Shown here: piece by piece, positions 21,650 to 24,766 of the stretch | Layout: every line of letters starts with the position of its first letter | Numbering within the stretch: position 1 is the first letter of the stretch | Assembly (NCBI RefSeq): GCF_044324875.1 | Contig: NZ_CP172185.1 | Reading direction: 5' to 3' (one strand) | Source: Escherichia coli | GTDB taxonomy: Bacteria > Pseudomonadota > Gammaproteobacteria > Enterobacterales > Enterobacteriaceae | Length of the DNA: 64,000 bases | Translations under genes and position numbers: made by a program | Notes under the pieces: generated by a model | What the model saw: the letters and a program-made list of their open reading frames with translations, nothing else | Databases searched by the model: none | Told to the model about the DNA's origin: nothing

Positions 21650-21852
21650 GAAAAGCCGAGGGGCGTCAACCGAAAAATGACCAATGATGGTGAGGAAAAA
21701 TCAGGGAAGTTGAAAAAAACTCATCTTAATTAGAGGCGATAAAAGATTTCTCTATAGAGCAATCCACCTCGCACGTTTTGACTGATATTCTGACAACACA
21801 GCGACACCTGGGCTTATTCGAAAAACAACGTCCTGCCACCGGATGGTGATGC

Positions 21853-21889
21853 TAAGGCATCTGATTCGGCCTGCGCCCTCGCGTAGGCC
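21853..21889. repeat. REP-like palindrome downstream of the nucleotidase-like gene
   Basis: gattcggcctgcgccctcgcgtaggccgaatac: 8-bp inverted arms attcggcc/ggccgaat. Confidence 0.5.
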
Positions 21890-21949
21890 GAATACTGGAT
21901 CTGCAAAATCAACTGGTAACAAACAGATGAATCAACTCAATACGTACTT

Positions 21950-23503
21950 TTACTTGATATCTTTCACGCGCATACCGTTGATCTGTTCATCCGTGATGGT
22001 GTTACCCGCTTTGAAGTAATCAACCACGGCGTGATAAACGTAATAACCGCCCGTTGTGTTACGCGCTTTCCCTTCGGTAAAGGCGGTAAAACCATCTCCA
22101 CCATCAGCAAGGAAACTCTGAGTAGCAATGTGGTAAATCGTCGCATCTTCAATGGGTTTGCCATTCAGAGTCAGTGTGATTACCCGCTGACCAACCGGTT
22201 TGCTGCTGTCGTACTTCATTTCCAGGCCTTTCGATACCTGTAAAACGCCATTACTTAAACTTGCGCCGTGTTCCATCAAACTGCGTAATTGTTTACCTGT
22301 GAGATCCATCGTCACCAGTTCATTGGGGAACGGGAAGGTACTGATGACGCCGCCCATCGTAATCGCCCCTGCGGGGATCTCATTGCGAATGCCGCCAGAG
22401 TTGGTTAACGCCAATTGGGTGTTTTTACCCGCCGCTACCAGTAAAGCATCAGCCGCCAGGTTCCCGAGGGAAGCCGATTCACCATAGGCACGTTTTAATT
22501 CAACCGGCGATTTCGCGACCGTTTGTTGCACCACTTCATCAAGCTTTTTATTCCAGCCGTCGATCACCTGTTTCGTTTGCGGATCGGGCTTCCACTCATC
22601 GGCGTAAATGGTTTTAAGCTCGAAGTTTTTCACCGTAAAATCATGCGGCTTCTCTTTGTAGTCGAGGACCAGTTTGCCCACATCAATCCCGCCGCTGTCA
22701 GTGGAGAGGATGAGCGTATTGCCGACTTTAATCGGTTCCGGCGTACCCACATGTGCATGTCCGGTGATCAAAATATCCAGCCCTTTCACCTGACTTGCCG
22801 TCTGAATATCTTTATCCAACGCGCGACGCACATCGGTCCCTCCCATACTGGACTGGCGGGCCGGAACACCTTCGTGGATCAGGGCGACGGTCAAATCAAC
22901 CTTGCCTTTGAGTTCATCGATATAACGTTGTAGCCATTTAATTTCATCACGCGCCTCAATACCCACTCGCGTTGCCGCAGATACCGTGTCATTAAAGGCA
23001 AATACACCGTGCAAACCTATAACGCCTATTTTCACACCGTCTTTTTCGATGATGGTATAGGGCTTATCCCAGAATGATTTACTGCTGTTCTGATAAAAAA
23101 CATTGCCCTGCACAATCGGGAATTTTGCCTGACTCAACTGTAATAATGTGTTGTCCCAGCCGTGGTCAAATTCATGGTTGCCTATCGTGACGGCATCAAA
23201 CGGCATAGTATTCATAATATCGATAATAGCCTTACCTTTGGTCAGGCTGCTGATATAGGGCCAGGTAAAATAGTCGCCCGCATCAAAAAACCATGTCGCT
23301 TTATTTTTTGCTTTTTCTTGCTTAACCAGCGTAGTGATATTTGCCCAGCCGCCAATATCCCGTTTACCGTCAGCGATCCACGGCACTTTATAAGGCTCGA
23401 CATGTGCATGGAGGTCGTTGGTATAAATGATGGTGACATCTTTAGCGCAAGCCCAGAATGGCAGTGTTAATGCGATACCCGCAGCAAGTATTTTAATTTT
23501 CAT
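21950..23503 (-). CDS. Secreted calcineurin-type metallophosphoesterase / 5'-nucleotidase-family protein (UshA/CpdB-like)
   Basis: 517-aa ORF; N-terminal signal peptide [20 protein letters not shown]; metallophosphatase motifs in order DxH (NDLHAH), GD (DAGDYF), GNHE (GNHEFD), GH.H (ITGHAHV); C-terminal half consistent with 5'-nucleotidase substrate domain; RBS aaaggga upstream. Confidence 0.8.
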
Positions 23504-23635
23504 AAACAGTCCCTTTCAGTGAGATAAAGGATTGCTACATTACGTTCTGAAAGAGTTATTTATGTGAGAGTAATCACATCCACAGGGGAGCGTTGCCGGA
23601 CAAAATCAACGACCATGTGAAATCGTTGGTGATAT

Positions 23636-24766
23636 ATGTCGACTCTGTTTACGATTAATGCCTGCAAGTCGTTTGGTTGCCGTAATTTAGGGCAGCCAAC
23701 ATCGACAGATTATAGCTGGCCCGACTATCGACTGGGTTATCCGGCATTGCACTGTCGGGCATGTGGCAGTTACCCGCCGTTGTTTGACGAGCAACAATTT
23801 CGTGACTGGTTGACAGTTCACTTATCTACTTTTGCAACAGAGAAAGGCCATTTTTGCCCGGTATGTTATGGCACAGAGACGATTTGTTATGGTCACAATC
23901 CACAGGGTTCGCAACGCATTCAATGCCGTAACTGCAAAAAAGTATGGACACCCAAACAATATCAGAAAGAAATAACGCCTCCCGAAATAATCGAAACGGT
24001 TGCTTTTCTCGTGCCATTTCAGGGAGTCAGCAGCGGGCAGAAACTGTATGTTTTAATCAGTTTTGATGCTCTTCGCGGTAATATTCTTCATCTTTCTACT
24101 AATTACACGCAGCATCAGGCTGGAGAAAGTCTGCATTATCGATACAGAGGAAATGCAGAACCAGAGTTACACGACAATAATATTGTACAACGCGTTGATA
24201 TGCGCGAAGCACAATTTCTACGCCGCAGTCAGTTTGATGAAATTCAGTATGGCAGCGCAGCGCTCAAGCGCAATGCCAAAGGCATTATTCTGCGTCCGGT
24301 TATCACAGCGCACGGGCATTTTAGAGTACTGAATATTTTATTCCCTACAGTAAAAACACATGTAATTTCACACGAGTGTTTTTTAAGAGGTGCGATTATT
24401 ACGGCCTGGGCAGAACTGTTTCGCCAACAGCAAGGTGAGATTTGGTTTATTGAAGAGGAAATAGCTGACTATACCGATAATACGCCCTGGCGTTTTCAGG
24501 GAACAACTTATCACGGCTGGTGGAAAAATCAGTGGCAACTTTGGGGTCAGGGCAAAAATCGTAAAATGGTATGTGCATTAACAGGCGGAAATAACAGCAA
24601 AGCTGAAATGCTCTCTTTCGCAACCAGCAGACATTTTATCGACTGGCTACATAAACAAGCAGTATTTACTCACAGCACCCCGCTTTCCGCAGGGCGCGTT
24701 ACGCAAATACTGCTTTCTCTGGCTCAGGATTACAACAACTGCGCCAGCCGGTTGATATCCGACTGA
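23636..24766 (+). CDS. Cys-rich protein with N-terminal zinc-ribbon motifs (transposase InsA-like signature), C-terminal domain of unknown function
   Basis: 376-aa ORF; Cys pairs C10x4C15, C40xxC43, C74xxC77, C97xxC100; segment CPVCYGTETICYGHNPQGSQRIQCRNCKKVWT resembles IS1 InsA-type zinc ribbon (from memory); 3' end overlaps metL 3' end antisense by 37 nt. Confidence 0.7.
   Translation: MSTLFTINACKSFGCRNLGQPTSTDYSWPDYRLGYPALHCRACGSYPPLFDEQQFRDWLTVHLSTFATEKGHFCPVCYGTETICYGHNPQGSQRIQCRNCKKVWTPKQYQKEITPPEIIETVAFLVPFQGVSSGQKLYVLISFDALRGNILHLSTNYTQHQAGESLHYRYRGNAEPELHDNNIVQRVDMREAQFLRRSQFDEIQYGSAALKRNAKGIILRPVITAHGHFRVLNILFPTVKTHVISHECFLRGAIITAWAELFRQQQGEIWFIEEEIADYTDNTPWRFQGTTYHGWWKNQWQLWGQGKNRKMVCALTGGNNSKAEMLSFATSRHFIDWLHKQAVFTHSTPLSAGRVTQILLSLAQDYNNCASRLISD

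Follow-up and report, generated by a model that had tools for sequence, protein, structure and literature searches.

A putative regulator derived from an IS1-type transposase, paired with a nucleotidase gene between metF and metL in Escherichia coli

Introduction

The classic nucleoside regulon is attributed to CRP, CytR and DeoR. In another setting, proteins of transposable elements are known as regulators: InsA of the insertion sequence IS1 is a DNA-binding repressor, and the TnpB-derived TldR is a domesticated transposon protein acting as a bacterial regulator. The two subjects may meet in Escherichia coli, within a stretch of 64,000 nucleotides (assembly GCF_044324875.1, contig NZ_CP172185.1; hereafter the window), where a pair of divergent genes, encoding a nucleotidase of 517 amino acids (aa) and a cysteine-rich partner protein of 376 aa, lies between metF and metL. 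The reading that we favour, with a probability of roughly 0.55, is that the pair forms a module under CRP control that scavenges nucleotides in the periplasm and has a domesticated transposase as its regulator, a module ancestral in the Enterobacteriaceae and lost in the K-12 lineage.

The locus is already on record: in the passages and tables retrieved from a 2026 genome comparison of extraintestinal and avian pathogenic E. coli (ExPEC/APEC), it is listed as "GR 31 metL..metF", with a Tsx-like gene and three UshA-like open reading frames (ORFs), and nucleoside processing is suggested (PMC12928451). The original prediction, made from the letters of the window, recognised no described system here, which stands for the cysteine-rich partner (no characterisation of its family was found in the literature searched) and falls for the locus and for the nucleotidase, of which crystal structures are deposited. 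In the sources searched, what appears undescribed is the partner family, together with its apparent IS1-type domestication linked to nucleoside metabolism.

The nucleotidase and its divergent partner gene

A gene for a phosphoesterase and one for a cysteine-rich protein were originally reported on opposite strands around a divergent region of 132 bp, and all three are found where they had been placed (both genes from the ORF list of the window):

21950-23503, minus strand: nucleotidase ORF, 517 aa
23504-23635: divergent control region, 132 bp, between the nucleotidase and the 376-aa genes
23636-24766, plus strand: ORF of the cysteine-rich partner, 376 aa

The phosphoesterase assignment is borne out by two Pfam domains, PF00149 Metallophos (E 1.7e-11, residues 24-252) and PF02872 5_nucleotid_C (E 1.1e-38, residues 335-477), which place the 517-aa protein among the two-domain Metallophos/5'-nucleotidases (UshA-type superfamily), and export, also proposed at the outset, is predicted from a signal-like N-terminus of about 20 residues that ends in ACA before KD. 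Over residues 19-517 the protein is ~98% identical to PDB 3IVD/3IVE, deposited as "Nucleotidase", i.e. the same protein from another E. coli strain, which we take to be a structural-genomics entry for c4898 of strain CFT073, with uridine and cytidine as bound ligands; the literature searched held no functional study of the protein. Since scores against all the curated equivalog models fall far below their cut-offs (UshA, NF007109, 147.5 bits for a cut-off of 600; NadN, TIGR01530, 130.2 for 436; CpdB, NF006938, 97.6 for 486, through the N-terminal domain alone; SoxB, 149 for 550), the enzyme is best classed, on sequence, as a subfamily separate from UshA, NadN, CpdB and SoxB. It is highly conserved, with 87-98% aa identity across genera and a ratio of non-synonymous to synonymous substitutions (dN/dS) of 0.02-0.06.

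Of the metal-binding motifs DxH, GDxxxG, GNHE and GHxH, the first and the last two are readable in the translation as NDLHAH, GNHEFD and GHAH, and the remaining one, GDYFTG, carries a Gly-to-Trp change private to this strain (G81W, codon 23261-23263, base 23263, minus strand). Position 81 is Gly in the PDB protein, in E. coli 042 and in 49 of 50 homologous hits, and the identical 121-bp segment around G81W occurs in no complete E. coli genome; the change could inactivate the enzyme or be an artefact of sequencing.

An IS1-type transposase without its catalytic residues

The partner belongs to a small family, with only 120 clusters (clustering at 50%) found in an exhaustive search of 1.84 billion representative proteins, and about 250 proteins when clustered at 90%; full-length members span 370-530 aa and are labelled in databases as "cytoplasmic protein" or, wrongly, as "IS1 family transposase". 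The copy of the window shares its entire sequence (100% identity) with a protein cluster that occurs on 638 contigs. No Pfam family scores above threshold for the 376-aa protein, and residues 73-106 give weak zinc-ribbon matches of the InsA/IS1595 type. Three segments can be delineated:

23663-23764, plus strand: first zinc ribbon, C10, C15, C40 and C43, near-invariant cysteines in an alignment of 46 family sequences
23855-23935, plus strand: second zinc ribbon, C74, C77, C97 and C100, homologous to the IS1 InsA zinc finger
23987-24577, plus strand: RNase H-like domain (DDE transposase/integrase type), residues ~118-314

In the 46-sequence alignment, R197 and H228 are invariant, N156, Y168, P221, H246, W296, W300 and N367 are near-invariant, and the second ribbon is followed in most members by a segment of ~50 aa that is a gap in the clade of the window. 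Ribbon and segment together align to residues 4-87 of IS1 InsAB' (hhalign, probability 96.5%, E 7.6e-10, with an InsAB' sequence entered by hand), which correspond to the InsA zinc finger and helix-turn-helix. Independently, the NCBIfam transpos_IS1 model is matched in distant members over positions 1-81/87, always below cut-off: against NF033558 (IS1 transposase, cut-off 100 bits) the highest score among distant members is 38.3 bits, from positions 1-81, and that of the window partner is 21.1 bits, from positions 1-46. The transposase-type zinc ribbon that had been noticed in the cysteine-rich protein is thus of the InsA type by the weak NCBIfam and Pfam matches and by hhalign; of the InsA-type N-terminus the window partner retains this ribbon alone, and the clade lacking the helix-turn-helix covers E. 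coli, Citrobacter, Klebsiella and Enterobacter.

The AlphaFold2 model of the partner is of high confidence (pLDDT 95, pTM 0.93) and shows, from residue 118, the strand and helix order of the RNase H fold. The catalytic Asp positions are not conserved, the corresponding residues being T121 and R220-P221, and E247 alone is kept. This holds family-wide: the beta1 position is Thr or Ser and never acidic, the position after beta4 is mostly Arg or Lys followed by Pro, and the E247 position, after beta5, is acidic in all family sequences, so that the conserved DDE triad of an IS1 transposase is missing. A comparison of the family profile with PDB sequences returned C2H2 zinc-finger arrays only, a similarity of Cys/His pattern that is uninformative. 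Taken together, sequence and model suggest that the partner is an ancient, immobile and catalytically disabled derivative of an IS1-type transposase.

Could such a protein have remained, or become again, an enzyme? The partner may be a component of the pathway itself, an enzyme or a nucleic-acid- or nucleoside-binding factor on an RNase H/PIWI/EndoV-like fold, acting for example in cytoplasmic nucleic-acid or nucleoside processing downstream of the nucleotidase. We consider this unlikely, and it is nonetheless the chief rival of the regulator reading, the other alternatives discussed below being less likely still. The fold also resembles PIWI, EndoV and NurA, an active or ligand site could be built from R197, H228, H246, Y168, N156 and E247, and the absence of the helix-turn-helix from the window clade is in keeping with such a role; the two catalytic Asp positions of RNase H-fold nucleases are however not conserved, and the N-terminus shares its ancestry with the portion of the repressor InsA that binds DNA.

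According to another alternative, the partner is in the Enterobacteriaceae a decaying relic, kept only because its promoter region or its 3' end is tied up with the promoter of the nucleotidase gene and the terminator of metL. Decay would agree with the missing helix-turn-helix, and so would the existence of truncated copies (in Salmonella arizonae and in some database entries) and the fast evolution of the protein, whose identity between genera is 57-63% versus 87-89% for the nucleotidase. This remains improbable in view of a dN/dS of 0.10-0.27 over deep divergence, which indicates purifying selection, of a full-length ORF retained in dozens of species, of the invariance of core residues and of the very high AlphaFold confidence.

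Linkage of the family to nucleotide and nucleoside scavenging

Relatives of the partner were scanned in the Enterobacterales, with one genome per species and starting from the closer family alignment, and their neighbours were identified by tblastn. Of the 40 related Enterobacterales loci, 38 have a divergent nucleotidase gene 121-132 bp upstream, the two exceptions being a locus at a contig end and the truncated copy of Salmonella arizonae, where the spacing is unmeasurable. The association extends to distant homologues (20-40% identity), for which 11 neighbourhoods were looked up: ten hold nucleotide or nucleoside genes, and the eleventh is a short contig. Their arrangements include the following:

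P0141: divergent from deoB-deoD-nucleoside symporter
P0149: divergent from nupC-deoC-deoA-deoB-deoD
P0185: divergent from nupC
P0123: divergent from a nucleotidase gene
P0146: divergent from genes for a porin, a class B acid phosphatase (AphA-like) and a class II cyclic-nucleotide phosphodiesterase
P0159: adjoining genes for Tsx, a nucleotidase and a sulfatase-like enzyme
P0170 and P0165: directly downstream of a nucleotidase gene
P0209: directly after a purine/uridine phosphorylase (PNP) gene

A paralogous module is also found in some E. coli, as in RHB23-SO-C02 (L057, a 1.3-Mb record labelled plasmid), between mokC/dnaJ and nhaA (3597-7245); there, on one strand, genes for a Tsx-like channel and a sulfatase-like hydrolase precede that of a 414-aa protein of the family, which shares 25% identity with the window partner, and the channel is 54% identical to the Pfam Channel_Tsx protein of another locus of the set (L010). 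Because nucleotidase or nucleoside genes adjoin the family member in all informative neighbourhoods, we conclude that the partner family has a functional tie to the scavenging of nucleotides and nucleosides. The operon-like position directly downstream of a nucleotidase or PNP gene, seen in several distant members, would also suit the chief rival mentioned above, in which the partner is an enzyme or accessory factor of the same pathway.

The neighbourhoods bear as well on the idea that the pair is a system of phage defence or nucleotide depletion. Enzymes that degrade nucleotides are part of some defence systems, which lends the idea some general support, and phage sensitivity had been named in the original prediction among the phenotypes worth testing. 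We hold it to be the least probable of the alternatives: no PADLOC-DB v2 family was matched at E <= 0.01 by either protein or by two distant homologues, the predicted secretion of the nucleotidase would put the cytoplasmic nucleotide pool out of its reach, the neighbours of the family are genes of catabolism and transport (deo, nupC, Tsx), and a CRP site lies in the control region.

The divergent control region

The control region is 121-132 bp long in all 38 related loci where it is measurable. Three elements were recognised within it, given here without strand:

23513-23553: palA, candidate operator CTTTCAG-N27-CTGAAAG, conserved across genera, its left arm overlapping the nucleotidase ribosome-binding region
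23563-23578: perfect CRP core TGTGAGAGTAATCACA, conserved in nearly all related loci
23607-23628: palB, candidate auto-operator CAACGA-N10-TCGTTG, just upstream of the partner Shine-Dalgarno sequence

The CRP core is the sole perfect TGTGA-N6-TCACA in the 64-kb window (0.08 expected), and a motif search retrieved CRP-like sites in the control regions of distant homologues as well as upstream of the second nucleotidase gene of a longer form of the locus described below. The right arm of palB, AAATCGTTGGT, is near-invariant across related loci. With the centre of the CRP site at 23570.5, it is plausible that both transcription starts lie ~40 bp away, and the candidate -10 elements CAAAAT (23601-23606, plus strand) and TAATGT (23543-23538, minus strand) would provide a plausible promoter geometry. 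A scan for the sigma-70 consensus gave one match, inside the nucleotidase coding region, which is fewer than in shuffled sequences and uninformative.

A regulatory RNA was considered for the same region and rejected: the covariance models of Rfam 15 gave no match at E <= 1 over 21400-24900, and the palindromes fold as RNA no better than shuffled sequences (z -1.25 for palA, -0.24 for palB). For these two reasons the palindromes are regarded as candidate protein-binding sites. The divergent arrangement, the fixed spacing and the conserved palindromes around a CRP site are typical of a local regulator, and argue against the partner being an enzyme or accessory factor.

An old locus rather than an insertion

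Is the pair a recent arrival between metF and metL, as was first thought, or an old resident? The scan returned 36 loci encoding relatives. The divergent pair is found at metF..metL in several Citrobacter species, Klebsiella pneumoniae, K. oxytoca, K. spallanzanii, Kosakonia, Phytobacter, Superficieibacter, Kluyvera, Salmonella enterica subsp. arizonae, Pseudocitrobacter and Escherichia whittamii; overall, it has the same locus and the same orientation in at least ten genera of Enterobacteriaceae. Synonymous divergence (dS) between the window and E. whittamii amounts to 0.25 in the nucleotidase gene and 0.23 in the partner gene, compared with 0.24 for metL and 0.36 for metF. Because the pair is syntenic across genera, with a dS to E. 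whittamii like that of the flanks, these sequence comparisons indicate that it is ancestral at metF..metL and that K-12 has lost it or had it replaced; the strain- or lineage-specific insertion put forward in the original prediction is not upheld.

The same comparisons weigh on the related proposal of a mobile-element remnant, in which some E. coli lineages would have received, in the metL-metF interval, a transposase together with its nucleotidase cargo. Several features could recommend it, namely the transposase-type zinc ribbon and DDE-like fold, a GC content below that of the flanks, the absence of the module from two thirds of E. coli genomes, and the existence of similar modules outside metF..metL in some genomes (L026, L045, L046), such modules being known from Enterobacter and, as an additional copy, from a few genomes of E. 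coli and Citrobacter. Against these stand the conserved locus and orientation, the dS equal to that of flanking genes, a median of one copy per genome with no carriage on true plasmids, the family-wide loss of two catalytic acids, the purifying selection on the gene, and the NCBIfam IS1 transposase score of 21 for a cut-off of 100. The inverted-repeat search recommended at the outset was run, and no terminal inverted repeats or target-site duplication were found to bracket the module. This reading is very improbable and already largely refuted.

Some records labelled plasmid (H66-H74, 80 kb to 5 Mb) carry metB-metL-metF-katG. Carriage on plasmids was examined as a candidate and set aside, since these records look like mis-assigned chromosome fragments (an 80-kb Salmonella record, L053, was inspected, and the rest were assessed by their size); they give no ground for regarding the module as mobile.

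Within E. coli, distribution was assessed by megablast of window positions 21400-25000 against 5426 complete genomes, a gene being counted as present at >=80% coverage. The flanks are present in 5425 of them and the gene pair in 1837 (34%), with a median of one place per genome among carriers, and K-12 derivatives and O157:H7 lack it; the original expectation that the module would be missing from K-12 and variably present in the species is confirmed. In the K-12 strain MC4100 (L001) the module is replaced by ~190 bp of unrelated sequence (1743-1877, ~1818-2010), which includes a REP-like element and an annotated hypothetical ORF of 44 aa, and since this sequence has no similarity to any related locus, no deletion scar is definable.

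Besides the short, two-gene form of the window, a long five-gene form exists in 659 E. coli genomes, including ATCC 25922, 536 and APEC strains, in which the nucleotidase gene is divergent from that of a 374-aa protein, itself followed by nucleotidase 2, nucleotidase 3, a Tsx-like channel and then metL. Between the window and ATCC 25922, dS is 0.14 for the nucleotidase, like the flanks, and 1.07 for the partner, and identity drops from 96-97% through the nucleotidase to 66-79% from ~23600-24000 onward; because of this discordance, the long form is read from the alignments as a recombinant that imported a diverged partner allele and three extra genes. The converse possibility, in which the short form is a deletion of the long form with its ORF fused to the metL end, was rejected with three lines against it: the presence in Citrobacter and other genera of the short form with the same overlap with metL, the dS of the window allele to E. 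whittamii, which agrees with that of the flanks, and the discordance within the ATCC 25922 locus.

Flanking genes and the ends of the module

The wider surroundings comprise the following features, the genes being taken from the ORF list:

18169-20388, minus strand: katG
20678-21568, minus strand: metF
21718-21949, minus strand: module-specific 3' flank of the nucleotidase gene, starting where K-12 homology ends
21864-21893: hairpin with arms of 13 nt (ATTCGGCCTGCGC / GCGTAGGCCGAAT), 57 nt 3' of the nucleotidase stop codon, from the inverted-repeat search
24730-27162, minus strand: metL, with metB next
24730-24766: tail-to-tail overlap of 37 bp between the 376-aa ORF and the 3' end of metL, the final partner residues being antisense to metL

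The initial description of this interval was accurate throughout. The metF start and the metL stop, said to be about 3.1 kb apart, are separated by 3161 bp, and in K-12, where they had been described as adjacent with a few hundred bp in between, the spacing is just 348 bp (MC4100). Alignment with MC4100 and ATCC 25922 shows that K-12 homology ends at ~21717-21722 on the metF side and restarts at the metL stop codon; the region upstream of metF is common to K-12 up to ~21717 and, as proposed, stays with metF. GC content, which had been estimated as a little below that of the flanking met genes, is 0.43-0.51 over the nucleotidase and partner genes and 0.55-0.61 in metL.

The hairpin at 21864-21893, also kept in ATCC 25922, is probably a terminator of the nucleotidase gene or a REP-like element. 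At the other end, the same type of overlap between partner and metL is annotated in Citrobacter, over 26 bp. An imperfect inverted repeat with 27-nt arms (24657-24715) lies within the 3' end of the partner ORF, directly past the metL stop, and could be the metBL terminator embedded in the partner coding sequence.

The gaps on either side of the pair vary among relatives: in Citrobacter (L004/L005) genes for a LysR regulator and a carboxymuconolactone-decarboxylase-like protein lie between metF and the nucleotidase gene, in a Salmonella strain (L053) a hypothetical gene and mscS lie between the partner gene and metL, and the gaps of Klebsiella L038/L042 vary too. Around a stable core pair, genes seem to be gained and lost with particular frequency in the metF-metL interval.

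A possible mode of action and its weak points

Of the two possibilities first offered for the pair, a mobile-element remnant with cargo or a regulator-enzyme pair, the evidence favours the latter, with a putative regulator. In the mechanism that we propose, active cAMP-CRP would lead to transcription of both genes from their common region, one CRP site being placed to serve both divergent promoters and the flanking palindromes being candidate operators. The exported nucleotidase would strip phosphate off nucleotides in the periplasm, and the resulting nucleosides would be taken up. The transposase-derived protein, presumably cytoplasmic, would modulate the module locally, probably via the palindromes of the 132-bp region, and may sense a nucleoside or nucleotide through the former active-site cleft.

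Several points weigh against this proposal. The main weakness is that the helix-turn-helix has been lost in the window clade, where DNA binding would have to be ensured by the zinc ribbons alone, and the regulator function of the partner is deduced from sequence and from a structure model. Several invariant or near-invariant residues (R197, H228, H246, Y168, N156 and E247) could equally mark a catalytic or ligand site, and in some distant members the partner gene lies downstream of an enzyme gene in the same orientation, an arrangement that fits an enzyme or accessory subunit just as well. The partner evolves about five times faster than the nucleotidase or metL at non-synonymous sites. The palindromes could have other readers or partly reflect constraints on ribosome-binding sites, and in the window itself the nucleotidase may be impaired by G81W, beside a metal-binding motif.

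A broader generalisation is tentative, and we give it somewhat less than even credence: a family of catalytically dead IS1-type transposases would act as transcription factors for nucleoside and nucleotide scavenging genes in the Enterobacterales and Vibrionales, with the cleft (R197, H228, H246, E247, Y168, N156) reused as a sensing pocket and the metF-metL pair as one ancient member. If true, a regulator class that has gone unrecognised would be added to the CRP/CytR/DeoR regulon, and the absence of the partner from K-12 may explain why it was overlooked; nothing relevant on a zinc-ribbon regulator of nupC or deoD was found in the literature searched. With the partner, the bacterial domestication of a DDE transposase would become testable in a concrete instance; no report of such a protein was found in a limited literature search that was not a survey. 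The partner has persisted for at least as long as the Enterobacteriaceae have existed, in a family tied to nucleoside and nucleotide scavenging across two orders. A plausible role would also be assigned to a module that is enriched in lineages of extraintestinal pathogens, in which two further nucleotidases and a Tsx-like channel come with the long form; this bears on the use of extracellular nucleotides in host niches.

Comparison with known systems

The closest enzymes, UshA, NadN and CpdB, have the same two-domain Metallophos and 5_nucleotid_C architecture as the window enzyme, which like them is predicted to be exported and presumably converts non-transportable nucleotides into nucleosides. 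The published region GR 31 metL..metF occupies the same chromosomal locus as the window pair; as far as its retrieved passages and tables go, it corresponds to the long five-gene form, whereas the window has the short two-gene form, and the zinc-ribbon protein, its family, the ancestry of the locus in other genera and the control region are not mentioned there (PMC12928451).

With the CRP/CytR nucleoside regulon (tsx, deo, udp, cdd, nupC, nupG) the window control region has in common a CRP-type site, and the genes of nucleoside and nucleotide catabolism and transport that make up this regulon, Tsx-like, deo and nupC, also mark the partner family. No CytR-type octamer pair was seen in the control region on comparison by eye with the consensus, and the regulator of that regulon is a repressor of the LacI family, whereas the candidate regulator here is a transposase-derived protein.

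The partner resembles IS1 InsAB' in the order of its parts, a DNA-binding N-terminus followed by an RNase H/DDE-type fold, and in its zinc ribbon, which aligns, together with the helix-turn-helix in most family members, to InsA 4-87. It has in addition an N-terminal zinc ribbon and a C-terminal helical extension, and there is no sequence-level match to the InsB/DDE part. Unlike IS1, it is single copy, syntenic and without terminal repeats, and the two catalytic Asp are not conserved.

TldR differs in its ancestor, a RuvC-type TnpB instead of the IS1-type DDE ancestor proposed for the partner, and no guide RNA is involved here. The likeness lies in the outcome, provided that the presumed regulatory role of the window partner is correct: in both cases a nucleic-acid-binding transposon protein would have lost catalysis and become fixed beside host genes.

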